A stretch of DNA of 64,000 nucleotides. It comes from Opitutia bacterium (GTDB taxonomy: Bacteria; Verrucomicrobiota; Verrucomicrobiia; Opitutales; T3Sed10-336). The stretch spans positions 96,001-160,000 of the forward strand of contig JBJHCF010000003.1 of NCBI GenBank assembly GCA_050506795.1. The letters are read 5' to 3'. Within the stretch, counting starts at the first letter, position 1. The number at the start of each line of letters is the position of its first letter. The notes under the pieces are model-generated. The model made no database searches. It was given only the letters and a program-made list of their open reading frames with translations, and was not told where the DNA came from. Positions 3,899 through 64,000 of this stretch are shown here, one piece after another. Made by a program: the position numbers and the translations under genes.

Positions 3899-6800
3899 AT
3901 GAAAAATAGATTCGAACCCAGTTCCCGAGCATGGGGCCTTATGGCGGCCGGAGCCGTCGCGGCTTCGACCCTGTGCGCACCTCTCTTCGCATCCGAAGCC
4001 GAACCGATACTCAACTTCGACGGAATCGAGAGTATTATTCAGACCGATCTGCATCCCGAAGACCTTGGCATCCAGGGAAACAATCCCAAAACGTTCGAAG
4101 CCTGGGCTTACACCCGGGCTTTCACCGAGGGAGGGGTTTTTCATGTCGGCACCTCGAACGCCGGTGAGGAATTCGCCCTGCGCACCCACGGGCTCAACGA
4201 CCGTTGGATGGCGCAGTTCTGGGGAAGCCCGGACCAGGTGTTTTCCGTGATCGGATCGAGCAACAACTGGACCCACTTCGCTTTTGTTTACGACGGGACC
4301 ACTCTGCGGGTTTACGCCAACGGCGAGGTTGTGGTTGACGAGGAAGTGGTGCTGGACACCCAGGGGGATGAATGGCCCCTTCGAATCGGCGCGTGGCGGG
4401 AACAGCATTTCAACGGTGCCATCCGTGATGTTCGGGTTTGGAACGTGGCTCGTACCCAGGCGCAGATCCAGGCGAACATGTCCGACACCTCTTCGCTGCC
4501 GCAGGCCAATCTGGTGGCCTGGTGGCCCTTGGATGAAGGGGAGGGGCGCGTTGCCAACGATGCTTCGGGCAACGGACGTCACGCCGATATTTTTGCCGCC
4601 CAATGGGAAGGGCATCAACTTGCCTACGACCCGGAGATCGAGGCCGACTTTGTCCTGGATTTTGGCGTCGGAGCCGGCCAGGCGAACGAGTCCGGACTGC
4701 TGCGCAATCGTGCGGATCATTTCTCTCTTGAGGACGATTCCCTCCGCATGACCAACACCACGGGCAACTTCATTTCCAGCGGCGCGGTGGCGTCCGTGAG
4801 CAACTACCAATCCGGACAGAGTTTTGTCCTGGAATCCGAGATCACCCTGACCGCTTTTCCGGATGTGCGCGCTTCCCGGCCGGGACTGATTGTACTGGGT
4901 GGGCCTCATGTTCCCCTGGAGCAGCCGTTTAATACCGGGGCGGACCAGAACTTTTACAGTGTATCCTTTTTTCCGGCTCTGCCTCCCGGAACAGTGACTT
5001 CGCTATTTCCTGCGATTGCGCCGGCCGGTGACTCGACCGCGGTGATCGCCATTTCCAACGGATTCAATGGTCCGTTCCTGGCGGCCCAACGTTGGGACGG
5101 TCGCCGTCCCGGGCCGGAGGCTTTGTTCGCCGACGATTTCGAAACTCCGGCCAACGATTCCCAATGGCAACGCGGCGGGCCGCAGGACAGCTGGGAGATC
5201 GGGAGCTTGGGATACCCGTCGGAAACCGTATTGCCGCCGGTGGAAGGCAGCACGCGGGTCGCCGCGACCAACCTGAACAGCCGCGTTTCCGAGAACTCGG
5301 AAGATTGGCTCCGTTCACCCGTGATCGACCTGACCGGGGTGGCGGCCGCGGAGGTCAGTTATCGCGAGGCCTTGTGGATTGATGATCACGTGGAAGACGG
5401 AGTGCAAGTTCACACCGCGACCGTTTCGGTAGTGGATGCCGACGGCAACTTTATCGCCCAACTGGCCCAGGACTGGGGCAACAGTGACGGCTGGCGGAAC
5501 CGATCGTTGAGCCTGCCGCCGGAAGCACTCGGTCAGCCGGTGCGGGTGGAGTTCCTGATGGTGACGGATAACTTCGCCATGAACGACCATTACGGCTGGA
5601 TCATCGACGACTTCGAGGTGAGCGCATTCTCTATGGAGCCGGGTGCGTTCGCCATGCGCGCCGAGGGCGCCTACGGGTTCGGCGGGGAGCTCACTCTTAC
5701 CATGACGCTTACCGATCTGGCCGATGCGGCGGAATACAGCCAATCCGTTTCGACCCATATCCTGAATCCGCGTGAAGGGAACCTTTTCGGGCTGGGAGGT
5801 CGCTTGCAGACCACCCCTTCGGGTGATCCGCAAATCGATTTCGCGAACCTCTCCATGACCCTGGTGGAGTCGCCGGAGTTGGTGCCGACAACGCCTGCGT
5901 CGGCGTTCTATTATCCGTTCGGCTCGGCGGGCACCCGGGTGAGTCCCGGAAATTTCGCCCTATATGCTGCGGAGGACTGGTCTCTGCAGTCCAATTCGCT
6001 GCAATTGACAGCAAGTCCGGCGGCGGAAAATTCACTGGCGGTTACCCGCGTCCGTGAATTCAGGCCGGGCAATGCGATTCACGTGGAATCCGACATCGTG
6101 CTGTCGAGCCTGAATGCCGGCGCCGCGGGCAATATTGGACTGGTCCTTTTCGGGCAGGAGGATTCGGCCGCATTCGATCCAAATGACAGCGGAACGTATT
6201 ACACGTTTCAATACATGGCCGACGCCAACGGCGGCAGCCGAATCGCGCTGAGGGAAGGGACTTCAGGCCCGATTCTTTATGAGTCTCCTTTTGCCGCGCC
6301 GGTCGAAGGAGCGACCTATCGCTTTGAGTTCACGGGAACTCCAAACGGGGACGGGGTTATCGACTTCACGGCCATCCTCTCCGCCGGCAACGGAGCCAAC
6401 GGAACGCTAAGTGGAGAGATACACGCTTCCATGGAAGGGCGCAACCGGTTCGGTTTCGGTTCCTCCCAGGGCGGCGGCGATGTCTGGGACGTCGTAAATT
6501 TCGGCGGCTACACCACGGTGGAGCAGGATGCGGAGTTCCAACTTTATCGTTGGACCCCCCTGCAGGTCAGAGGCGCCAGCAGCATCCAGATGTCCGAATT
6601 CACCTTCTTCTACCAGGGGACCGATATCCTGGAGGCCCGACGGGCGGCGGAACAACCGATGCCGACGGTGACGGGTTCTCACCCCATCGGTCACGAGGGT
6701 CCGCCCCAATTGGTGGACGGTGATACCGGGACGAAATGGTTCGGTAATGACACCTCGCAACCGGTGCTCTTCACCTTTGACGAGCCGGTGCAAATCGACG

Positions 6801-51166: not shown

Positions 51167-54100
51167 GTTTCCAAGCCACTTGGGTGCGATAGCGACAACC
51201 GGGCCAAGGCGGCATGGGACCGGCTCAAGAGGTTTCCAAGCCACTTGGGTGCGATAGCGACGGATTGCCGGAAGGGCTGGCGGCCATGTATTATGGAGTT
51301 TCCAAGCCACTTGGGTGCGATAGCGACGCTTCCGGGACTTGCTGCTGCTGATCCGTCTCTTGAGTTTCCAAGCCACTTGGGTGCGATAGCGACGGGAAAC
51401 GCATACCTGTTTAACTTTTCGTGCGAGGATGTTTCCAAGCCACTTGGGTGCGATAGCGACGATGCAGCAGTCGATCCCCGGGATAGGGCAATACGTGTTT
51501 CCAAGCCACTTGGGTGCGATAGCGACCGAACGCGGGCTATTTGCAGACGCTGAAGCGTACGGGTTTCCAAGCCACTTGGGTGCGATAGCGACGGCCGGCC
51601 GCTACTCACCAAAGCCGGAGCGCTGAAAAGTTTCCAAGCCACTTGGGTGCGATAGCGACCGTTTTCCCTTCGCGCCGGGAGGGGCGGGTTTCACCGTTTC
51701 CAAGCCACTTGGGTGCGATAGCGACACGACCCCGGCCGCGTTCCGCGTCAATGCGGTAAACGTTTCCAAGCCACTTGGGTGCGATAGCGACCCTGGAGTA
51801 CAAGCGTGCTGCCTGGCATCCCGCAACGTTTCCAAGCCACTTGGGTGCGATAGCGACGCAGGAACTGCGTCAGGCGGTGGCGGCGGATCCGTTGTTTCCA
51901 AGCCACTTGGGTGCGATAGCGACACCGACGAGGATTTCGTGCGCTGGGATGGCGCGATCGTTTCCAAGCCACTTGGGTGCGATAGCGACGCAACTTTCGT
52001 AGTCAGGGCGGGTTGGGTCTTGGAGCGTTTCCAAGCCACTTGGGTGCGATAGCGACGATTCGGGGTTGTTCCTGCTCTTTCTGGAGAGTTCGGGTTTCCA
52101 AGCCACTTGGGTGCGATAGCGACGGCCTCGGAAGGGAAAGGATGGATGAGAATTAGGGAGGTTTCCAAGCCACTTGGGTGCGATAGCGACGATTCGGGGT
52201 TGTTCCTGCTCTTTCTGGAGAGTTCGGGTTTCCAAGCCACTTGGGTGCGATAGCGACTTACCGACGATTTCGACCATGACGACGGCACGTTCACGTTTCC
52301 AAGCCACTTGGGTGCGATAGCGACGGTCCAAAAGGTGGTTTCTTTGCGCTGGCGGGCCAAGTTTCCAAGCCACTTGGGTGCGATAGCGACGGCGCCATCG
52401 CCGAGTGGATGAATGTCCAGAGCGAAGTTTCCAAGCCACTTGGGTGCGATAGCGACCCGGAACATTTGATGGGGCGCGATCCGACATTGAGATGTTTCCA
52501 AGCCACTTGGGTGCGATAGCGACGAGCCATACAAGGGAACCCTGGCACTGACGGTTCTAGTTTCCAAGCCACTTGGGTGCGATAGCGACCCGGCCGTCGC
52601 CGCGATGGACCAGGCGCTCACCAACAGTTTCCAAGCCACTTGGGTGCGATAGCGACGGAGAGCGTCGGCGGCCCGGTAGTAGAGATCCGTATGTTTCCAA
52701 GCCACTTGGGTGCGATAGCGACGACGAGCAGCCCATCACCCCGCAAAACCTTTCCGAGGTTTCCAAGCCACTTGGGTGCGATAGCGACAGGTTGTCCACC
52801 ACCGGCGCGTCGCCGCCCGTCGGGGTTTCCAAGCCACTTGGGTGCGATAGCGACTTCCCGCTCCATGGCGGGCGGATCGGCGAGAGTTGCAGTTTCCAAG
52901 CCACTTGGGTGCGATAGCGACCGTGCTGATGCCCACCAAAACGGCCAGGATCTGGTGTTTCCAAGCCACTTGGGTGCGATAGCGACCACGCACCTCCCTC
53001 AGTGTTTTGTAGGCGCTCCTGGGTTTCCAAGCCACTTGGGTGCGATAGCGACATCCCGAGGTAAATGAGATTGCGCAGTTCTGAAGGAGTTTCCAAGCCA
53101 CTTGGGTGCGATAGCGACCCCACCTGGTCATTCGGCCGCGAGGGCAACCAGATAAGTTTCCAAGCCACTTGGGTGCGATAGCGACCTGAGAGCGGCGAGG
53201 ACGAAGAGGAAGAGGATTACAGTTTCCAAGCCACTTGGGTGCGATAGCGACGGAGATTCGGTGAGATCGTAATTCAAACTCTCCAATGTTTCCAAGCCAC
53301 TTGGGTGCGATAGCGACATCGAGGAGAGGCGACGGACGGACGGGCAATACACGTTTCCAAGCCACTTGGGTGCGATAGCGACCCTGGCCGCCGATCTCCG
53401 CGAGGCGATCGATCACCGTTTCCAAGCCACTTGGGTGCGATAGCGACCAAGTGAGAGAGGATGCGGCTCTGCGTCAACAAATGTTTCCAAGCCACTTGGG
53501 TGCGATAGCGACGACCGGTTTCGGGGTGCCCTGGTTGCCGGTGATCGGGGTTTCCAAGCCACTTGGGTGCGATAGCGACGAGCCTTCCGTTGCTCACGAA
53601 GGATCGGCTCAATCTGTTTCCAAGCCACTTGGGTGCGATAGCGACGGCAAACTCGCTCGGATTCGCGCCGCCATTGCCGGAGTTTCCAAGCCACTTGGGT
53701 GCGATAGCGACGCGGTCGCGGGCGTGTTTGCGGGTGAGTTGTTCGAGTTTCCAAGCCACTTGGGTGCGATAGCGACGGTGAAAAACCCGCCTCTAAACGG
53801 GCAGGAACGCAAGTTTCCAAGCCACTTGGGTGCGATAGCGACCCGCGCAACCCTCGGCGTCATCATCCCAGACCTTCATCGTTTCCAAGCCACTTGGGTG
53901 CGATAGCGACTCGGAACGATGCTCGCCCTGACCCGAACCGTTTCGCGTTTCCAAGCCACTTGGGTGCGATAGCGACCCTGGGAGGTTTTGCGGAGTTTTG
54001 AGTGGCTGTCTGTTTCCAAGCCACTTGGGTGCGATAGCGACTACGGGTCCGGGGATCGGTCTGGGCGATTACCTGGGTTTCCAAGCCACTTGGGTGCGAT

Positions 54101-54306
54101 AGCGACTCAAACAGGCGGAGCCGGTCGACTCTCCCGGATCGGTGTTTCCAAGCCACTTGGGTGCGATAGCGACGCGCGAAACGTCGGGGACATGCGGGGA
54201 GGCGGGAGGAGTTTCCAAGCCACTTGGGTGCGATAGCGACTTCGGCAGCTTGGCTCGGGATCGAATTGTTTCTTTTGTTTCCAAGCCACTTGGGTGCGAT
54301 AGCGAC
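51167..54306 (-). CRISPR. CRISPR array: 48 identical 30-bp repeats and 47 spacers of about 35-38 bp
   Basis: Repeat GTCGCTATCGCACCCAAGTGGCTTGGAAAC (minus strand; GTTTCCAAGCCACTTGGGTGCGATAGCGAC on plus), counted by hand. Orientation inferred from the GAAAC 3' end and the leader next to cas2. Confidence 0.98.
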
Positions 54307-56449: not shown

Positions 56450-56785
56450 ATGCAAGTGAAAACCGCGGAGTTAAAAAACAACCTGAGCAAGTATCTGCGA
56501 CGAGTGCGGGAGACCGGGGAGTCGATAACCGTTTGCGACCGGGACAGGCCGGTGGCGGTTCTTTCGCCGTTGCCGGCGGAGCAAGTCGAGGTGGTGGAGA
56601 ATCGCGAATGGCTGAAGGAGCGGGAACGGATATTGAAGAAAGCGAAGCGGTTCGGCGTTCGCCTCACCATGCCCAAAAAGAAGCCGCGACCGATGCGGGA
56701 ACTCGGGATTTATCCGACGGTGGCGCCGGACGGGCGGACGGACATCAAGACGATCGACCTGGTGCGCGGCGGACGCGATTATTGA
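56450..56785 (+). CDS. vapB: Phd/YefM family antitoxin
   Basis: MQVKTAELKNNLSKYLRRVRETGESITVCDRDRPVAVLSP; directly upstream of a PIN gene. Confidence 0.85.
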   Translation: MQVKTAELKNNLSKYLRRVRETGESITVCDRDRPVAVLSPLPAEQVEVVENREWLKERERILKKAKRFGVRLTMPKKKPRPMRELGIYPTVAPDGRTDIKTIDLVRGGRDY

Positions 56786-56791
56786 GGAGCG

Positions 56792-57193
56792 ATGGTAACC
56801 TACTGGGACACGAGCGCGCTGCTCGCCTTGCTTTTCGAAGAAGTGCATTCCGCTCGGGCAAAGGCGGCCAACGACCGGACTGATTCCTTCCTTGCCTGGC
56901 GATGGATCGAAGTTGAGGCGCGCCTCGGGTGCGACCGACGAAACGCAAATCCGATCCAGCTGGATTTTCTCGACCGGTGGTTGAGCAACGCGGAATACGC
57001 AAATCTTCAGGAAGACGACTATCCCGTACTGATCGACCTCGGTCTCCGCCACAAACTCCGCGCTGCCGACGCCGGACACCTGCACTCCCTTCTCCAGGTC
57101 CGCCGCCTCTTTCCCGAGATCGCTTTTGTCTGCTTCGACGAAGCCCTGACCGCCGCCGCGAAGGCGGAAGGAGTTGCGGTTTGGGAGGGGTGA
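56792..57193 (+). CDS. vapC: PIN-domain VapC toxin
   Basis: YWDTSALLALLFEE, LRAADAGHL, FVCFDEALTAAAKAEG. Confidence 0.9.
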   Translation: MVTYWDTSALLALLFEEVHSARAKAANDRTDSFLAWRWIEVEARLGCDRRNANPIQLDFLDRWLSNAEYANLQEDDYPVLIDLGLRHKLRAADAGHLHSLLQVRRLFPEIAFVCFDEALTAAAKAEGVAVWEG

Positions 57194-57207: not shown

Positions 57208-59562
57208 TTATATTACGATTCCTGGGCCTCCCACAGGCGTTTCAGAAAATTCCAAACCTCGATCAGCACTGTAAGGCTGGTCCGCCAACATAATTCGGTG
57301 TTCGGAACAGCGTGTGATCAATTGCTTGGCGCTCAGCATCCTGAAATGACCGTGCGAAATTGGAACCGTTAACATCCCGGCCTCAAGGTATCTTCCTTCG
57401 GCATGAAGCTCCAGGAATTCCTGGAAGAGAGATGATGGAAGAATTTCAGTTCCGTCGAAAAGGGCTTCGAACTGCTCAACGGCATCTTCGTCGGACTGGA
57501 ACGCGATCAGCCGCTTCGAACCACAAATGCTCTCGAACGCTTCAATACCATTTTCAATACACTCTTCGATTATTTGCCGTTCCGGAGCGTAGATTTCATC
57601 CAGCCATTCCGACACCGTTGCTTCATCCAAGATTTCCCCATCATGTTTTTTTAAGTGTTCGACCGTCCGATGAAGCAGAGCCTCCTGCCCATAAGGACGT
57701 CTCCAATCCACAGGTTCATTGAAAACGATGACAGGGCGGTGATCGTGTAACCGCCGGCGATTAACCCGCCCAAAACGCTGAAAGAGAGCTTCCAATGGGG
57801 CGGGTTCGGTGAACAGAACATCAAAGTCCACGTCCAGGCTTACCTCGACAACTTGCGTAGCTGCCACAATCAACCCCTTTCCGTCCTGAGAATTCGTGCA
57901 TTTTAAAACGTAATCCTCTTTTTCAAAGCGATCACGTGCGGTAAACCGGCTATGAAGCAGCAACACTTCCAGTTGATCCTCTGATTCGCGAAGCGCTGAA
58001 AAAACCTCTTGCGCCGTCTTAACCATATTGGCGACGACCAGAACTTTCATTCCTAGCCGGGCTTTTATCAGAATTTCTTGTATTGATGCCTCAGCCGTTA
58101 CTGGACCACTTATGACCGTCATGCGATGCCGCTTGAATTCTTCGAATAATGCAGGCGCTGCTTCCACTTTCGCGCATGGGGCTAGTGCCTCGGCGCAGCG
58201 TTCGTTGAGCCAAGTCGGCATGGTAGCCGACATGCAAAGGATCCGGCCCTGGCACTGCTCGCGTAGAGCTCGAAGCAGCCCGAGTATCAGGCCAAGGCGC
58301 TTCGGCTCGTAGCCATGAATTTCGTCGAGGATGAACCGGCCATGTCGCAGCATAAGCCATTGGGCTTCGTAACCGGGCAGCCGAAATGCCGCTCGCAGGA
58401 GCTGGTAAGGAGTGGCGACCATCACGGGGTTTGTGGCCAATTTCGAAAGCGAACGACTTTGCTTTGCCCGATGAGACGCTGTAAGAAAGTCCACACCCTG
58501 TTCGTCCAGGTCCCGATAAAGCGCAGCCGTGGCGCGACTGTGTAAAAGAGCGGTTTGTGCTTCGCCAAATTCGTATCTGTCACGAATTCGTTGATACATG
58601 GCATTGATGCTCGCTTGAAACGGAAGGACATAAAATAGTGATGGCGCACCCGCCGCCGTTTCCAGATTCCGTTTTGCCCAGAATAGAGCCGCTTCGGTCT
58701 TGCCACTTCCCGTCGGAGCTCGCAGGAGGACGTTTCCTTCGATTTCTCCACACTCGCGTTGGTGTTCAAACCAGTCGGTCCGTGTGCGCGCCAAGAATTC
58801 GATTCTCTCCAAATTTGGCTTGGAAAGCGTCTCGGCACCAGCACTGGCGAGACGGTCGGCTTCGAGGATTAGCCCGCGCAGGACTAGAAGCTGACGACGG
58901 AGACGGGGGTTACCGTTCCTGTTGCGAAAAGACGATTTCTGTTCTTTGAAAAGGCAATCGAAAATTCTCAAAGCCGCTTGGATCAGTTCAGGTGCTTTCT
59001 GAAAGAAACCAGCAAGCTCCTTTTGGCTGAAAGCTAAGCACGTCGCCGGAAGATCTCCGACAACGGCAGATCGAGCGGTGTCTGCCTCTTCCACCGTCCA
59101 CCGCCAAAGAGCGTCGATAATATCGTAGGAGATTTCCGAGCGCCATCTTTCATCTATAACGGATTCGGAAATCTCCGGTTGATCGGTTATGTAAGTTCGT
59201 TCGATAAAATCATGGTCGCGGTGATGGGAAACGACCGCCGCGGCCGCGAACTTGAACTCTTCGCTGTCCGGCTCAAACACCCAAGCTAAGAACGGCAGAG
59301 ACAAAACCTCATGGCGATATCCCCAAGGGGTCTTCGTCCGCAGTTGGCGCTGGAACCCGGGAGCCGCTTTCCCGAAATCATGAAACCAAACTGCCCAAGA
59401 GACGATTTGCCATAGTTGCGGGAGTTCGATCTCGTCCGCTAAAGCCGGTAATCGCTGGCGCAACTGCCCCAAGCGACGCATTACTTGCCGGGTATGTTCA
59501 GGTAGCGTCTCGCCGCCTGGCACAGGGCTTTTGGCGTAGAACCTTTCTGCCTCAATCGGCAT
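57208..59562 (-). CDS. cas3: Cas3 HD nuclease-helicase
   Basis: FHDFGKA, RHEVLS, SHH, EADRLAS; APTGSGKT, LDEIH, MSAT, QRFGRVNR; start 59562 or 59583. Confidence 0.95.
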   Translation of the reverse strand: MPIEAERFYAKSPVPGGETLPEHTRQVMRRLGQLRQRLPALADEIELPQLWQIVSWAVWFHDFGKAAPGFQRQLRTKTPWGYRHEVLSLPFLAWVFEPDSEEFKFAAAAVVSHHRDHDFIERTYITDQPEISESVIDERWRSEISYDIIDALWRWTVEEADTARSAVVGDLPATCLAFSQKELAGFFQKAPELIQAALRIFDCLFKEQKSSFRNRNGNPRLRRQLLVLRGLILEADRLASAGAETLSKPNLERIEFLARTRTDWFEHQRECGEIEGNVLLRAPTGSGKTEAALFWAKRNLETAAGAPSLFYVLPFQASINAMYQRIRDRYEFGEAQTALLHSRATAALYRDLDEQGVDFLTASHRAKQSRSLSKLATNPVMVATPYQLLRAAFRLPGYEAQWLMLRHGRFILDEIHGYEPKRLGLILGLLRALREQCQGRILCMSATMPTWLNERCAEALAPCAKVEAAPALFEEFKRHRMTVISGPVTAEASIQEILIKARLGMKVLVVANMVKTAQEVFSALRESEDQLEVLLLHSRFTARDRFEKEDYVLKCTNSQDGKGLIVAATQVVEVSLDVDFDVLFTEPAPLEALFQRFGRVNRRRLHDHRPVIVFNEPVDWRRPYGQEALLHRTVEHLKKHDGEILDEATVSEWLDEIYAPERQIIEECIENGIEAFESICGSKRLIAFQSDEDAVEQFEALFDGTEILPSSLFQEFLELHAEGRYLEAGMLTVPISHGHFRMLSAKQLITRCSEHRIMLADQPYSADRGLEFSETPVGGPGIVI

Positions 59563-60277
59563 TGGAGAAATGGTGAAACTCAATCAAGTGAGGTTCCCCG
59601 GGCGACAGCGCCGCATCCGCCCAGAGTTCCAGCGATCCATCAAGGCAAACAGCGCGATTTGGTCCGGCCAATAGAAATTGGGAGACGGCGATGTACAAGC
59701 CCCACGATCTATTTTCCCGATTCGTAGGGTCCATCACCCTTGGCATTCGGAGCATTTCACCGGCGGGGAGAACCTCGGCCATCTCAGGAGAAAACAATCC
59801 GGGACCCAAGCGACCATGGTTCGCCTTTTCCAGCGTAACCTTCGTGACCGTTCTGATCGAAGCCAGATCCTGAGATCGTCCCAAAACCGGCGGATAGCGA
59901 GGGGAACGAAAAGCATTTATCCAGAAATCCAGAGATTCACCCGCCAAATACAACGTCAATCGGGGAAAGATCAACCATTCGCGCGGCAGGATATTGCTGT
60001 TCCCCTCGAGGTTGAATTCTTTCGATGGACCCCGGGTCGATTTGTTTGGCTCCAAAAACCAAATTTTTTCGATATCGTCGATCCGCTCACCTTCGCATTC
60101 AAAGCGATAAGCGAATGAAATACTGGCCGGGTCCGGAGGGATTCCGGCAGCACAGGTCAACAGACCGTAAATTGTCGAAGGAGGCGGCATCGGGAATGTT
60201 GGCTGCCGCCCAATCAGAAAATGCGGAAAGCGAAACGAGGCGGTAGGGCCGCTAATTTCAATGCGCAAGGCATTCAT
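59552..60277 (-). CDS. cas5: Cas5 (type I-B)
   Basis: TASFRFPHFLIGRQPTFPMPPPSTIYGLL, LGRSQDL. Confidence 0.93.
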   Translation of the reverse strand: MNALRIEISGPTASFRFPHFLIGRQPTFPMPPPSTIYGLLTCAAGIPPDPASISFAYRFECEGERIDDIEKIWFLEPNKSTRGPSKEFNLEGNSNILPREWLIFPRLTLYLAGESLDFWINAFRSPRYPPVLGRSQDLASIRTVTKVTLEKANHGRLGPGLFSPEMAEVLPAGEMLRMPRVMDPTNRENRSWGLYIAVSQFLLAGPNRAVCLDGSLELWADAALSPGEPHLIEFHHFSNAD

Positions 60278-60288
60278 ACTCTCTTAAA

Positions 60289-61362
60289 TCAATTGAACCA
60301 ATCCGGGTTTTTATCGACTAAATCGGCGAGACGCTCAAAGGCATGCCGCGGATGGCAGAGTTCCAGTCCATGGGGGAAACTGCTCTGAAGTTTTTCGAGG
60401 TTCGATTTGAGTTTCAGACGGCCTTCCTCGCAATATCCGGTCGTCCATCCGACGAATACGGGAGAAAGAGTTTGATCTCCCCACACTTCCCCGGCTTCCC
60501 GGAGTGAATCGAGCGCGGGGGTAATCTCTCCGTTTTCCATTGCCTGAACGCTGTATTGGAAAGGGTTGTTCGCACCCTTGAACGCGGCGGCAATGACGAT
60601 GACCGGCGATACGTCCGTATAATGCAATCCCAGTTTGGCACCACCAGACACATGCGGCACAGCTCTGAGCAGCATTCCGACACGGTTTTGCCTTGTTTTG
60701 ATAGGAAGCCGGAATGCCTTATTCGGTTCGTCGTTTTCAAGGTTCTTTTCTTCGCAGAGCTTCCTTCGTTCCTTATCCAGATTCAGATGCCCGGTCTGGT
60801 TAAGGTAGGAAAACGAGCCGGAGGTCGAAAGGTCGAGGGAAAACAATCCTTTTAGCGCGGTCTTGTAGAACTGATGCTCGTGCGGCACCGCATCGCCTTC
60901 ATGCCGGCTCATGGTTCCGAAGTCAGAGGTGATTCCATCGGTCATTCCGACTAAAGTTCCCACGCGAAAGGGAGAAACACGCGTTATGGTGACTTTCGCC
61001 TCAACCGGGGTTGCGCCCACCATCGTTGCCCGGCTTTCAGCTGCCTCGACCTTCTTTCCTGGCGCTCGCATATAACCGAAAAGGTCGTCGTCACTATAAC
61101 GGATAGGATTGGCATCGGTGTAGGCTACCTTTGCCTCTCGATAAATCGGGGCTCGTTCCCATTCGTCCGGGTAGAGCCTCTCGACGGTCTCGCGAAGCCA
61201 CCGTCGATAAGCTTGGGCGGAAACATAGGGATATTGTTTGCGACCGACACGAAGAAACTTGGTTGCGACAGCATTCTCCATTGTCGTGCCAGACGCTGCG
61301 CCAGCATTGTTCAATGCGCTCCCAGGGGCGTCGATAATTTGAATTCCGGTTATATGGGCCAT
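60289..61362 (-). CDS. cas7: Cas7 (Cst2/DevR type)
   Basis: APGSALNNAG, YPYVSAQAYRRWLR, DDDLFGYMRA, TRVSPFRV. Confidence 0.93.
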   Translation of the reverse strand: MAHITGIQIIDAPGSALNNAGAASGTTMENAVATKFLRVGRKQYPYVSAQAYRRWLRETVERLYPDEWERAPIYREAKVAYTDANPIRYSDDDLFGYMRAPGKKVEAAESRATMVGATPVEAKVTITRVSPFRVGTLVGMTDGITSDFGTMSRHEGDAVPHEHQFYKTALKGLFSLDLSTSGSFSYLNQTGHLNLDKERRKLCEEKNLENDEPNKAFRLPIKTRQNRVGMLLRAVPHVSGGAKLGLHYTDVSPVIVIAAAFKGANNPFQYSVQAMENGEITPALDSLREAGEVWGDQTLSPVFVGWTTGYCEEGRLKLKSNLEKLQSSFPHGLELCHPRHAFERLADLVDKNPDWFN

Positions 61363-61411
61363 GACTATTTTTTCTCGCTTGTGTTTATAGAGCTAAAAGC
61401 CTCGCAAACGG

Positions 61412-62896
61412 TCAACGAAGCTCATCGATTGTTTCAATTGCAATTTCGTCCGGGGCGACAACCTCATCGTCTTCCTCACGTCTGAGCGCGGGCCAATTCT
61501 TGAGTTGCTCAAGGCAGCGTATGCGGATCATATCACGCGCTAGGAAAAATCCTCCGTGAGGAACGTTTTCCTCGTCCTCGAAGATCTCCGTAAAATCGTC
61601 CAGGGTGAGGAGAAGTTTGGGTTCGTTCTTCAACAGCTTCAGCGCGGTCCGAACAAGAATTGCGCGGAACGCCGTATAAGAATTGGTGGACTGAGTCCGT
61701 CCCATGATCTGGCTGAAGAGCTTCTTATCGTTTGTTTTCTGGATGATGCCAGAAAGTTCATCGGCCAGGAGTCGTATTTTCTCAATTTGTTCTTTTTTCA
61801 TAAGGATTACAATTCGCAGAAAGACGGAAAGTAGATCCCAGAGCTGAATAGGAGTCGCATCCAGATTCTTTCGGTACCCCGCCAGGTTTTCGGCATAACT
61901 TTGAAAATAGCGTCGAAGGAAGGCTTGGACATTGGCGGGAAGGCTGTAGAGATCATCGTATAAGGAGTTGTTGGAAACCCGATTTTTCTCGTTGGTCAAA
62001 ACATCGTCGGAAGACTCCGTTTTACCCTTCCACCAAAACGCATTGACAAAGGTCAGCCACGACTGCCGAAGGTCTGCCATGTTCACTCGGATTAGGAATC
62101 GTGAGACCATGGGCTGCAGCGAATAAATATCGATGGCGCAACCCTGACTGCTGTTCGACAGAAAGTAGAGAATTACGCCGGGGCGTTTAGTCGAACGCGA
62201 CAAATCCCGTGTGAGTTTGGATTCCGCTGCGAAAATATCATCCAATCGTTGGGCTACACGAGTTTTTTGACCCTTCCTGTCGGGTAACGCTGTTCCATGA
62301 AGTCGAGCTTTCGCGAGATCGGTTTGTTGCTGTTCATACCAACCGAACAAGAAGGAAAGCAGGAGATCTTTGCTTTCCATGGCGACAACCGGCATTCGTC
62401 CGCTTACCACGGGAAGTACTTGAGGAATCGCGAGCAGACAGCCATAGGCGATTCCTGAAAGTGGAATCTCCGCACGGCCGCTAGGATAGAAATTCACCTG
62501 GTTTCGCCCCTGAACCATTGGAAATTGATCCCTCGCCGCCCGGATGACCGCAGGAAACTCCTGGAAGAAAGCACAACGATCAACCGTCGTGTCTTCGATG
62601 TCCGACAGACTGTTCACGAACCCAAACGCTTCCTCAATCGCCTTCTTTCGTTTTTCCCCTTTGAATGCCGGATTATCGAAGCTGTTTGTGGTAAAGAGGA
62701 TTCCAGTTGGCTTCTTCAACAAGCCATCGAGATAATCCTCTTTGATGCGGTTCATCGTTTTTACCCAATCAGTCCAAGTCACCTCGCAAGGATTTCCCAC
62801 CTCACAAGCCAAAACGACTGAGGCCACGCCCGTGTCGATTAGGGGCTCGCCAGTCCACCGGAGGAACTTAGAGCGGTTGGTTCTGGTATCGGTCAT
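61412..62896 (-). CDS. cas8: Cas8 large subunit (Cst1-like)
   Basis: WTGEPLIDTG N-terminal motif, NFYP, LSNSSQG; lies directly upstream of cas7. Confidence 0.8.
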   Translation of the reverse strand: MTDTRTNRSKFLRWTGEPLIDTGVASVVLACEVGNPCEVTWTDWVKTMNRIKEDYLDGLLKKPTGILFTTNSFDNPAFKGEKRKKAIEEAFGFVNSLSDIEDTTVDRCAFFQEFPAVIRAARDQFPMVQGRNQVNFYPSGRAEIPLSGIAYGCLLAIPQVLPVVSGRMPVVAMESKDLLLSFLFGWYEQQQTDLAKARLHGTALPDRKGQKTRVAQRLDDIFAAESKLTRDLSRSTKRPGVILYFLSNSSQGCAIDIYSLQPMVSRFLIRVNMADLRQSWLTFVNAFWWKGKTESSDDVLTNEKNRVSNNSLYDDLYSLPANVQAFLRRYFQSYAENLAGYRKNLDATPIQLWDLLSVFLRIVILMKKEQIEKIRLLADELSGIIQKTNDKKLFSQIMGRTQSTNSYTAFRAILVRTALKLLKNEPKLLLTLDDFTEIFEDEENVPHGGFFLARDMIRIRCLEQLKNWPALRREEDDEVVAPDEIAIETIDELR

Positions 62897-62919
62897 GGTT
62901 TGGCGTTGTCCGCATTGAC

Positions 62920-62988
62920 GGGAAAGGAGCTTAGTTCTTTTTTAATGAGAAACATGTTTTCAAGCCACTTTAAGGTACGATAGATTAC
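62920..62988 (-). ncRNA. Putative crRNA-like RNA (solitary degenerate repeat plus promoter-targeting spacer)
   Basis: Pseudo-repeat GTAATCTATCGTACCTTAAAGTGGCTTGAAAAC (62988-62956; 25 of 30 repeat positions match in a gapped alignment), then ATGTTTCTCATTAAA..., which matches 63223-63209. Confidence 0.75.
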
Positions 62989-63173
62989 TATGGCTCCTTT
63001 CCCGTCAGATCGCGGCAAATCTTTCGTGCAAGGCGTTCTGGTATCTCGTTATGGCGAGGGACAGCTTGCCATTCTCCTGTCTTCGTATTCTCCCAGAGGC
63101 TGTGTCTTGACCCTTCACGTCGGAGGCGACATCCATGGCGACGAAGAAACCGGAGAAGTAGCGCTCTCTTCAT
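62988..63173 (-). CDS. hicA: HicA family mRNA interferase toxin
   Basis: 61 aa; LRREGSRHSLW (catalytic His retained), VPRHNEI, LARKICRDL. Confidence 0.9.
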   Translation of the reverse strand: MKRALLLRFLRRHGCRLRREGSRHSLWENTKTGEWQAVPRHNEIPERLARKICRDLTGKEP

Positions 63174-63206
63174 CCTGACTTGAAAACCTTTCCGTTTGAA
63201 AAATCC

Positions 63207-63236
63207 AATTTAATGAGTAACATTGGATCTTTTCAA
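63207..63236 (-). promoter_or_regulatory. Predicted sigma70 promoter of hicA (and probably cas8-cas3), containing the crRNA-like RNA target
   Basis: TTGAAA (63236-63231), N18, TAAATT (63212-63207); CCA plus protospacer at 63226-63209. Confidence 0.65.
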
Positions 63237-63289
63237 TCGAACGCAACCAGACAAGTCAAGCACTTCTTGGGGTTAAGTCACCGTTATTA

Positions 63290-63502
63290 TCAGGAGATGG
63301 CTTCGATAACCACGGACTCGGTCTTCGCTCTGCCGATCTCCGTGTTTCTTCTTTCTTCGAAGATTAAGTCGATCGCCGCCTTCAGATCTTCGATACACTC
63401 TTCGCGTGTCTTTCCCATCCCGTTGGCAGCGGGCACTTCGGCACACGTGGCTGTCCACCAATCGCCTTCCTCGCGTAATATGGCTGTGAAAGTTTGGATC
63501 AT
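63290..63502 (-). CDS. hicB: Short HicB family antitoxin (no DNA-binding domain)
   Basis: 70 aa; FTAILREEGDWWTATCAEVPAANGMGKTREECIEDLKAAI. Confidence 0.85.
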   Translation of the reverse strand: MIQTFTAILREEGDWWTATCAEVPAANGMGKTREECIEDLKAAIDLIFEERRNTEIGRAKTESVVIEAIS

Positions 63503-63556
63503 AGTTCTCCATTACAATGGCTGATTCATTCGCGGGAAGCAAATGGATTTCCTTCA

Positions 63557-63808
63557 TCAACCCCAATCCTGTGCGCGGTTCAATTTTTTGAGGATCCGAT
63601 CAATGCGAGGATCGGACGGGTCGGGTTCTGGAACGGATAGCCGGCCAACCCATTTCCTTACGAAGCTGCCGTCGAATTCGCCTTCCTCCACAAAAGCCCG
63701 AAGATCCTTCTCGACTACTGCGGAAAGGGAAATTCCTTCATTCCGTGCCATCAATCGGGCTTTGCGAAGCACCTCCGGATCGATTCTAACGGTGAGATTC
63801 TTTTTCAT
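63557..63808 (-). CDS. Ribbon-helix-helix / DUF6364-like antitoxin-type protein
   Basis: MKKNLTVRIDPEVLRKARLMARNEGISLSAVVE. Confidence 0.7.
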   Translation of the reverse strand: MKKNLTVRIDPEVLRKARLMARNEGISLSAVVEKDLRAFVEEGEFDGSFVRKWVGRLSVPEPDPSDPRIDRILKKLNRAQDWG

Positions 63809-63847
63809 TGGAGTAAGAATCAAGTGCATTTGCCTTCCTGAACATTT

Positions 63848-64000
63848 TCATCCCGCGTCCACCGCTCCGAAGCCCATGGAGTTCATTTCGCCGAGGCCGG
63901 CGGACCAGATGAGGCGCTGGAGTGGGATTGGGGCGGTGACTTTGACCGGTGCGGCCCAACTGCGGACGGGGATATTTTTGATGTGAAAGAGCCGGGTTCG
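63848..64000 (-). CDS. cas6: Cas6 C-terminus (5' part lies outside the window)
   Basis: Hand translation ...APIPLQRLIWSAGLGEMNSMGFGAVDAG* contains the Cas6 G-rich loop GhGxxxxxGhG. Confidence 0.85.
   Translation of the reverse strand, partial: RTRLFHIKNIPVRSWAAPVKVTAPIPLQRLIWSAGLGEMNSMGFGAVDAG

Follow-up and report, generated by a model that had tools for sequence, protein, structure and literature searches.

The DNA considered here is a 64,000-nucleotide (nt) stretch of an Opitutia bacterium genome (assembly GCA_050506795.1, contig JBJHCF010000003.1, positions 96,001 to 160,000), referred to below as the window, and all positions are those of the window. At its end, the minus strand carries a complete type I-B (Cas8b1/Cst1) CRISPR-Cas system, within which the gene for a HicA toxin is followed by a degenerate CRISPR repeat (psiR) and a pseudo-spacer (psiS). 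The order on the minus strand is cas6, a gene for a ribbon-helix-helix (RHH) protein, hicB, a 116-nt spacer, hicA, a 91-nt spacer with psiR-psiS, cas8-cas7-cas5-cas3-cas4-cas1-cas2 and the array (Table 1). The type I-B Cas8b1 (Cst1) set is present in full, comprising cas6, cas8b1, cas7 (Cst2), cas5t, cas3, cas4, cas1b, cas2 and the array. The G+C content is 59% for the genome, 53% for the cas region and 38-40% for the two intergenic spacers around hicA.

The array contains 48 identical copies of a 30-nt repeat, GTCGCTATCGCACCCAAGTGGCTTGGAAAC, on the minus strand (54306-51167). Local alignment of this repeat with psiR gave 23 identical bases out of 26 aligned, with one 2-nt gap and a score of 30. 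The 3' half of psiR, which includes the predicted handle, is identical to the repeat at 14 of 15 positions (7 of 8 in the handle itself) and lies in the same orientation as the array. Shuffling the 91-nt hicA-cas8 spacer 1000 times never produced a score of 30; nor did 200 shuffles of the entire 12.3-kb cas locus, for which both strands were scored and the maximum was 28. Within the cas locus, psiR is the top repeat-like match and the sole one outside genes; the runner-up scores 22 and lies inside genes. The predicted Cas6 cut site was placed by the rule that handles in type I-B are 8 nt long (PMC9458426). A repeat-like sequence in the hicB-hicA spacer was also considered and was rejected, 168 of 1000 shuffles having scored as high. 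Viral contigs searched with the guide and the repeat yielded 0 matches.

The sequence that follows psiR, ATGTTTCTCATTAAA (62955-62941), and ATGTTACTCATTAAA (63223-63209), which lies 268 nt upstream of it, are the sole two matches in the window. Identity between psiS and this target is 14/15 counted from psiS position 1, with the lone mismatch at position 6, and ends after nt 15. The psiS-target pair is the best local alignment between both intergenic spacers and was equalled in 2 of 1000 shuffles. Across the 4.9-Mb genome, 54 sites match at least 11 of the 13 paired positions, with 13/13 reached only in the guide itself and the target; one further site among the 54 carries CCN, at 11/13. The target falls between the hexamers of TTGAAA-18-TAAATT and extends over its -10 box; a consensus scan returned this site as the sole minus-strand promoter-like match in 62700-64000. 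The hicA start (63173) is 34 nt past the -10 box, and the toxin gene thereby stands directly downstream of the targeted promoter-like site. A sequence scan found no terminator-like site between hicA and cas8. An earlier note, made from the letters of this DNA, had described psiR, psiS, the target, the CCA and the TTGAAA/TAAATT hexamers, and all of its coordinates and letters are correct. Its core idea, that a CRISPR RNA (crRNA)-like guide is aimed at the hicA promoter, passes the sequence tests of register, uniqueness, position 6, class of protospacer-adjacent motif (PAM) and comparison with L002, the closest relative locus found, which is described below.

The trinucleotide at the PAM position can be set beside biochemically profiled type I-B systems. 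According to the available text of PMC13199841, the Cas8b1 Cascade of Thermotoga maritima recognizes the PAM YYD, disfavours AAC, has a seed at positions 1-5 and 7, and leaves position 6 unpaired or ignored; it is the sole biochemically profiled Cas8b1 system whose repeat ends AAC. The same source reports that a pyrimidine at -2 is wanted by all ten profiled I-B systems, and that Cas8b1 and Cas8b2 also want one at -3. CCA here and CCT in L002 are compatible with the Thermotoga YYD and with the pyrimidine preference at -3 and -2, these being PAMs of other systems. The repeat-adjacent AAC is the disfavoured "self" triplet as in Thermotoga, and the guides of both loci are flanked by AAC or AAG-type "self" triplets. 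The earlier note had named a PAM incompatible with CCA as a result that would refute the idea. Because CCA and CCT fit the Cas8b1 YYD/pyrimidine preference, no such incompatibility is seen, but the PAM is not positively proven. Derivation of the PAM from array spacers, as that note had proposed, was carried out and gave no credible protospacers among the 47 spacers. Searched against their own genome, the 47 spacers gave partial matches only. The whole array returned 2 records from phages (best E 0.3) and 5 records from plasmids (best E 0.07), and realigned matches of the spacers in 401 genomes of the order were 19-31 of 35-37 positions identical, with no common flank. Three of the 47 spacers were tried as patterns in IMG/VR, with 0 matches.

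HicA scores 34.8 bits against PF07927 (cut-off 27), with conserved Gly-x-x-His and Pro-Arg-His motifs and 15 of 15 invariant family columns kept, and the HicA family profile matches Escherichia coli HicA (6hpb_A, E 0.0038). We take the His of the HicA motif to be the catalytic residue. The protein encoded upstream has an 81%-identical homologue that one source names a HicB-family protein. A profile of this HicB-like family (11 members) matches the HicB chains 6hpb_B (E 0.0013), 6u0i_A and 6g1c_V in the PDB, at E 0.0013-0.05, as well as TTHA1756 (E 1.1e-6); Pfam UPF0150 matches 6 of the 11 members and HicB_lk_antitox 4. The 70-residue protein of the window, searched alone, gave no Pfam match, and its AlphaFold model (predicted local distance difference test score 56) was too poor for a fold search and was not used. 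On these family matches, the 70-residue frame is a predicted hicB-like antitoxin gene, one that escaped the earlier note, in which HicA had been treated as a toxin under CRISPR control alone. Binding between HicA and HicB would follow from family membership and synteny.

Of 401 genomes sampled from the phylum, 48 have relatives of hicB, a count that includes the present genome. In 13 of 19 other loci with hicB relatives, hicA follows hicB. In 10 of these 13 related pairs the hicB stop and hicA start overlap by 4 nt, and the others have spacings of -1, +7 and an uncertain -28. In the window, by comparison, hicB and hicA are separated by 116 nt that carry the promoter-like site, the CCA at the PAM position and the protospacer. 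Judged by synteny, the pair here is an ordinary hicBA module whose two genes have been moved 116 nt apart. Because this insert carries promoter-like site, PAM and protospacer, it would be hicA, not hicB, that has been put under separate control, and the insert is the strongest internal sign of such putative control.

Table 1. Features of the type I-B locus and of the hicA region, by window position
Feature	Position	Strand	Remarks
psiR (degenerate repeat)	62956..62988	-	First base is the last base of the hicA TAG stop
Predicted 5' handle, last 8 nt of psiR, TTGAAAAC	62963-62956	-	
psiS (pseudo-spacer)	62931..62955	-	25 nt before bracket stem; first 15 nt pair with target
Partial protospacer, 15 nt, ATGTTACTCATTAAA	63209..63223	-	
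CCA at PAM position	63224..63226	-	5' of protospacer on non-target strand
Promoter-like site, TTGAAA-18 nt-TAAATT	63207..63236	-	9/12 consensus positions
Near-perfect palindrome, TTGAAAAGATCCAAT-N12-ATTGGATTTTTCAA	63196..63236		14/15 bp; spans -35 box, PAM, target and -10 box
Bracket stem, 5' arm	62993..63007	-	Within hicA 3' end
Bracket stem, 3' arm	62916..62930	-	20 nt upstream of cas8 start
hicA toxin gene, 61 aa	62988..63173	-	Intact; PF07927 E 1.8e-8
AT-rich spacer, hicB to hicA, 116 nt	63174..63289	-	38% G+C; unique in genome
Predicted hicB-like antitoxin gene, 70 aa	63290..63502	-	N-terminal (UPF0150/HicB) domain only
RHH protein, 90 aa (DUF6364)	63557..63829	-	PF19891 E 4.2e-8; PF05534 (RHH part of Pfam HicB) E 8.9e-6
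cas6, 3' end	63848..64000	-	Pfam Cas_Cas6_C E 1.7e-8, TIGR01877; gene extends past window to about 64975
cas8b1	62896-61412	-	cas8-cas3 block (57208..62896) assigned by TIGR01908, TIGR02585, TIGR01895, TIGR01587/TIGR01596
cas7	61362-60289	-	Same TIGR set as cas8b1 block
cas5	60277-59552	-	Same TIGR set as cas8b1 block
cas3	59583-57208	-	Same TIGR set as cas8b1 block
cas4	56676-55912	-	
cas1b	55799-54753	-	
cas2	54713-54453	-	
CRISPR array	51167..54306	-	48 identical repeats, 47 spacers of 35-38 nt

A second element frames the guide. An inverted repeat of 15 perfect base pairs, which extends to ∼23 pairs, encloses psiR together with exactly 25 nt of psiS (the bracket stem, Table 1). The fold of this stem has a z score of -5.41, reached in none of 200 shuffles. 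The corresponding stem of the L002 mini-array is ∼14 bp long (z -2.63, reached in 3 of 200 shuffles), with one purine-rich and one pyrimidine-rich arm. The mature CreA of Acinetobacter baylyi consists of an 8-nt handle and 25 nt of psiS, by a mechanism that is unknown there (10.1101/2024.01.05.574328), and the passages of the CreA literature available do not mention a stem of this kind. The bracket stem (15-23 bp) probably defines the 3' end of the guide or divides the RNA into its hicA and cas8 parts. A further possible pairing was observed between the hicA 5' leader, GTTTTCAAGTCA (63176-63187, immediately ahead of the start codon), and the 3' end of psiR, TGGCTTGAAAAC (62956-62967), amounting to 12 pairs including one G-U; by number alone it is within chance (4 inverted pairs in 600 nt). 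Either the ribosome-binding site of hicA or, in uncut RNA, the Cas6 site could be masked by this pairing.

Relatives of the locus were sought through Cas8, for which 3 homologues besides itself were recovered among 5.8 billion proteins, one of them 89% identical. Whole-collection scans returned loci at 24-39% identity, 28 of them from genomes and 1 from a metagenome, and hicA, hicB and the RHH gene were absent in all 29. The closest of these, L002, is from a metagenome-assembled genome of the Ignavibacteria, with Cas8 39% and Cas7 58% identical. Its array repeat, GTCTTAATCGCACTACTATAGAATTGAAAC, differs from that of the window. Directly upstream of L002 cas8 are the 3' part of a repeat (ATAGAATTGAAA, then G), a psiS of 32 nt and a second repeat copy (18/19), and both degenerate repeats, psiR1 and psiR2, derive from L002's own repeat. 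The first 18 nt of the L002 psiS match a CCT-flanked site 315 nt upstream with mismatches at positions 6, 12, 14 and 18; over positions 1-17, ignoring 6 and 12, the match is 14/15 and was reached in none of 2000 shuffles. Between target and mini-array is an open reading frame (ORF) for a basic protein of 59 residues (5674-5853), preceded by a strong GGAGG ribosome-binding site. This ORF has no Pfam or PADLOC family and no toxin signature, and a search of 1.84 billion representatives returned, besides itself, only one weak match (36% identity to a 482-residue protein, E 1e-5). The ORF is either a candidate gene for a small toxin or no gene at all. The two loci, unrelated in sequence, have a common order of pyrimidine-pyrimidine PAM with partial protospacer, small gene, guide and cas8. 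A sigma-70 promoter scan of L002 found none, a result that is uninformative for its phylum.

A filtered guide/target scan of 27 distant loci gave 6 pairs of at least 11/15, compared with 0-4 in 20 shuffles, and 14 was reached only in L002. The pair of the window itself escapes this filter, its handle ending in GAAAAC, and without filters G+C-rich noise dominated the scan. By eye, many of the distant loci (L003-L030) seem to have a gene of ∼320-360 codons directly upstream of cas8, the L002 product being an HTH-WYL-WCX protein by Pfam; no such gene was seen between cas6 and cas8 of the window. One genome of the same family (L032, G006:C19) has an array repeat one base off that of the window, with its array at a contig end, and no cas7 relative was found in this 96%-complete bin.

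Contigs from 4 public runs, which are fragmentary and leave 62966-63052 uncovered, include related sequences. Run X5, of another study, contains a hicA relative (99 nt, 10 differences) whose upstream flank (window 63200-63230) keeps ATCCAATGTTA, the PAM with positions 1-6; fragments of cas6, the RHH gene and hicB are also present in this run, with no cas8 at 80% likeness. Run X4 gave a 184-nt contig with 4 differences that covers 62771-62954. Another contig of this run (window 62739-63629) may join the RHH gene to cas8 with ∼480 nt less, its far side being only 45 nt long (80% likeness), and is a weak hint of relatives without hicBA.

As for the remaining features of the locus, in Pfam HicB (PF05534) it is the DNA-binding part that the RHH protein matches, and the 70-residue HicB-like protein corresponds to the N-terminal domain only; judged by domains, the two together look like a HicB split over two genes with the domain order reversed. 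The RHH protein is a possible DNA-binding partner or operator binder. In the array, the terminal repeat is also identical to the other 47, and spacers 32 and 34 are one 37-mer. An ORF of 204 codons between cas3 and cas4 (56471-57085), which overlaps the cas4 frame and has no NCBIfam match, is probably spurious.

In combination, these features suggest that psiR-psiS is a functional guide of the CreA/CreR type, a conclusion that we regard as likely when all functional readings are taken together. The guide most likely represses a predicted hicA-cas8 transcript, and HicA might then serve as an addiction or abortive-infection toxin. In the specific reading preferred here, the guide would control both cas8-cas3 and hicA, with a toxic consequence on release, to which we assign a probability of roughly 0.5. 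Transcription would start at the 63236-63207 promoter, placing hicA, the guide and the Cascade genes on one transcript that runs through cas8. Cas6 would cut psiR 8 nt from its end, at 62963/62964, and the RNA UUGAAAAC plus roughly 25 nt would be loaded into Cascade. Cascade would then read CCA and open a short R-loop spanning the -10 box and the spacer between it and the -35 box. This loop would not be long enough for Cas3 to be licensed, and binding would occur without cleavage. Bound in this way, Cascade would block initiation at the 63207-63236 promoter and read-through from cas6. In this way cas8-cas3 would be held under negative feedback until array crRNAs or anti-CRISPRs draw Cascade away, with the same switch acting on hicA. 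HicB, expressed from an upstream and Cascade-independent transcript, would buffer basal HicA. On strong derepression, when Cascade is lost or inhibited, HicA would exceed HicB and growth arrest would follow.

A more elaborate and rather improbable version holds that hicA is a captured guardian toxin under three layers of control, namely HicB protein, Cascade with its guide, and direct action of repeat-like RNA. In the third layer, the repeat-like RNA or the 12-nt pairing with the hicA ribosome-binding region would act on HicA or its mRNA. This version also includes the bracket stem as an undescribed, Cas6-independent maturation signal that would replace the second repeat and fix the guide at ∼25 nt. 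If it were true, the locus would naturally combine the logic of type II, type III-like and type VIII toxin-antitoxin systems.

Several observations weigh against the control of cas8-cas3 and hicA by the guide. The edit distance between psiR and the repeat is 8, and elsewhere in the genome, outside the array, 28 sites are equally close or closer; recognition of psiR by Cas6 is for these reasons not assured, and, given those 28 sites, its repeat likeness is persuasive only by its position and by what follows it. No second repeat is recognizable after psiS, and a promoter scan found no separate promoter for the guide. The promoter-like site itself matches 9/12 consensus positions, in a region that gave 3 matches compared with 0.9 ± 0.9 in shuffles, and is weak taken alone. 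The palindrome that surrounds the target points to a protein operator, which may be able to regulate this promoter alone. No PAM of the system's own could be derived, there being no credible protospacer for the 47 spacers among phages, plasmids, 401 genomes of the order or the own genome. Among the public runs listed, no RNA run contains the stretch. An analogue was found in only 1 of the 27 distant loci scanned, and the scans gave no close relative for target/psiS covariation, the Cas8 relatives in their loci being at most 39% identical. In X5, the target, in which CCA is kept, differs at positions 7, 8, 9 and 12, reading CCA-ATGTTAACAATAAAA, with the guide region uncovered; if the guide reading is true, the X5 guide, if present, would read ATGTTNACAATAAAA. 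Toxicity on derepression is uncertain because HicB is present.

In one alternative, the guide would be a CreR that autoregulates cas8-cas3 and hicBA would be a passenger, with HicA fully neutralized by HicB and no toxic consequence on derepression. Toxin-free CreR autorepression is the commoner arrangement in print, as far as the available text of the sources goes (10.1101/2023.03.10.532045; PMC12737573). Such a reading is also in keeping with the intact hicB upstream and with L002, in which the ORF at the equivalent place is an orphan without a toxin signature, and weakly with the X4 contig, which may mean relatives without hicBA. Passive cargo, however, would be expected to remain an intact hicBA unit, whereas the promoter and target are positioned exactly between hicB and hicA, breaking the usual coupling (10/13) and placing the toxin alone under Cascade. 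We consider this alternative unlikely. A direct role of the RNA as antitoxin, by which psiR RNA would bind and inhibit HicA or HicAB with or without Cascade repression, is modelled on the crRNA of the CCTA system. In Leptotrichia, the array is immediately downstream of hicA and the crRNA suppresses HicA toxicity within a HicA-HicB-crRNA complex, according to the portion of PMC13448076 available, and psiR likewise begins at the hicA stop codon here. The CRISPR type and repeat differ from those of CCTA, however, the window has a single degenerate unit instead of an array, and the PAM-flanked target match would be left unexplained, making this proposal very improbable.

The remaining alternative attributes the regulation to protein and the guide to relic or coincidence. 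Here, psiR would be a decayed leftover, the 15-nt match would be due to chance or be an insertion scar, and the palindrome would be the RHH or HicAB operator that does the regulating. The palindrome, in which the target falls within the 12-nt centre of TTGAAAAGATCCAAT-N12-ATTGGATTTTTCAA, is the main structural argument for such a protein-based explanation: at 14/15 bp it is typical of toxin-antitoxin operators and overlaps the promoter. It could be a protein operator (for RHH or the HicAB complex) or a weak hairpin that ends the upstream transcript; its fold as RNA has an energy of -15.3 kcal/mol (z -1.9). A plus-strand promoter-like match at 63196-63223 (TTGAAA-16-TAACAT), which points antisense into hicB, arises from the same palindrome (63196-63236). 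The 28 genome sites that are equally repeat-like by edit distance and the placement of both 15-mers as direct repeats 268 nt apart that flank hicA would be in line with a relic. By contrast, coincidence would have to produce several independent features together, namely the register from psiS position 1, the mismatch at position 6, the pyrimidine-pyrimidine PAM, uniqueness and the overlap with the promoter, and L002 repeats the same geometry with unrelated sequences. An insertion scar would also leave unexplained why one copy abuts a repeat handle. On balance, a relic or coincidence appears improbable.

Compared with published systems, control of cas8-cas3 and hicA by the guide would combine known parts. 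A CreA between cas6 and cas8 represses PcreT and Pcas8 (10.1101/2023.03.10.532045), a placement that the present guide matches, as the earlier note had pointed out, and CreA may carry a single or double psiR (PMC9458426). The CreTA of Haloarcula hispanica (type I-B) resembles the present locus in its Cas8b1 subtype class, cas6-cas8 position, degenerate repeat and seed-first partial promoter match beside a PAM, with one guide for the toxin and for cas8 onward; in the present locus the promoter, the PAM and the control by the guide are putative. In the text available, the CreTA toxin is a tRNA-sequestering small RNA and its arrangement is divergent, whereas the toxin here is a protein RNase (HicA) that is co-directional with guide and cas8 on one predicted transcript; the window also has a single psiR without a recognizable psiR2, a HicB protein antitoxin in addition, and a bacterial host (Verrucomicrobiota). 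CreP is a Cascade-repressed protein toxin of type I-F (10.1101/2024.01.05.574328; reviewed in PMC12737573). The CrePA of A. baylyi, again from part of its description, is similar in that a protein toxin promoter (putative here, like the PAM) is matched by psiS beside a PAM with a mismatch at a sixth-type position, and in that the mature guide keeps 25 nt of psiS, the distance between psiR and the bracket stem here. It differs in being of type I-F with a KilAC-domain, phage-derived toxin that has no protein antitoxin, compared with type I-B and a type II toxin with an uncoupled antitoxin gene. In CreTA and CrePA the guide RNA is the sole antitoxin; here a hicB-like gene lies 116 nt upstream.

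Mini-arrays are predicted to regulate toxin-antitoxin cargo, mainly in type I-D systems, with an addiction or abortive-infection logic proposed (10.1101/2023.03.03.530964), and in CRISIS crRNA-like RNAs supervise defence systems (10.1101/2024.12.27.630466). Like the window, both have guide-like RNAs in cas loci, for which promoters of toxin-antitoxin and defence cargo are the predicted or demonstrated targets. The mini-array cases are mainly type I-D and are called only "TA" in the text available, whereas the present locus is type I-B with HicA/HicB. HicA and HicB are unnamed in the Shmakov 2023 and CRISIS main texts, as far as available, and in part of the Shmakov supplements, of which larger tables may list them; a toxin-antitoxin pair split by a targeted promoter is not described in the available mini-array and CRISIS texts. 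In CCTA (Cas13a-HicAB), HicA and HicB are likewise found in a CRISPR-Cas locus, their adjacency is broken by CRISPR-derived sequence and a repeat RNA follows hicA (PMC13448076). That system is of type VI, with cas13a beside hicAB, and exerts Cas13a-HicB protein-protein and crRNA-HicA control without promoter targeting or a PAM-flanked partial protospacer in the part of the description available; the window locus is of type I-B. Full-text literature searches found no paper linking HicA to Cascade or to crRNA-like promoter control.

CRISPR-guided repression of toxins and of a system's own cas genes is a known principle, since CreTA, CreR, CreP and predicted regulation of toxin-antitoxin cargo are published. 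The remark in the earlier note that a type II toxin wired in this way was not recognized as described is too broad in view of CreP, mini-array control of toxin-antitoxin cargo and the type VI integration of HicAB with CRISPR. What looks new is that the controlled gene encodes a classical type II toxin, that the targeted promoter splits a hicBA module, that toxin, guide and Cascade genes share a single predicted transcript, and that a bracket stem is present. Because the class of mechanism is known, the gain is therefore one of new wiring and testable details, not of a new principle. Compact modules of this kind are used to stabilize CRISPR tools and kill switches (PMC12980059, text available in part).

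In guide maturation, the bracket stem, conserved in both loci, may take the place of a second repeat. If control of both cas8-cas3 and hicA by the guide is true, a CRISPR system is able to enlist an ordinary type II toxin as its guardian by means of a self-targeted promoter inserted between the antitoxin and toxin genes. Passenger toxin-antitoxin cargo could by this simple route evolve into an addiction or anti-anti-CRISPR device resembling CreTA. RNA-guided self-regulation would also reach beyond haloarchaea and clostridia, to bacterial type I-B systems with Cas8b1.

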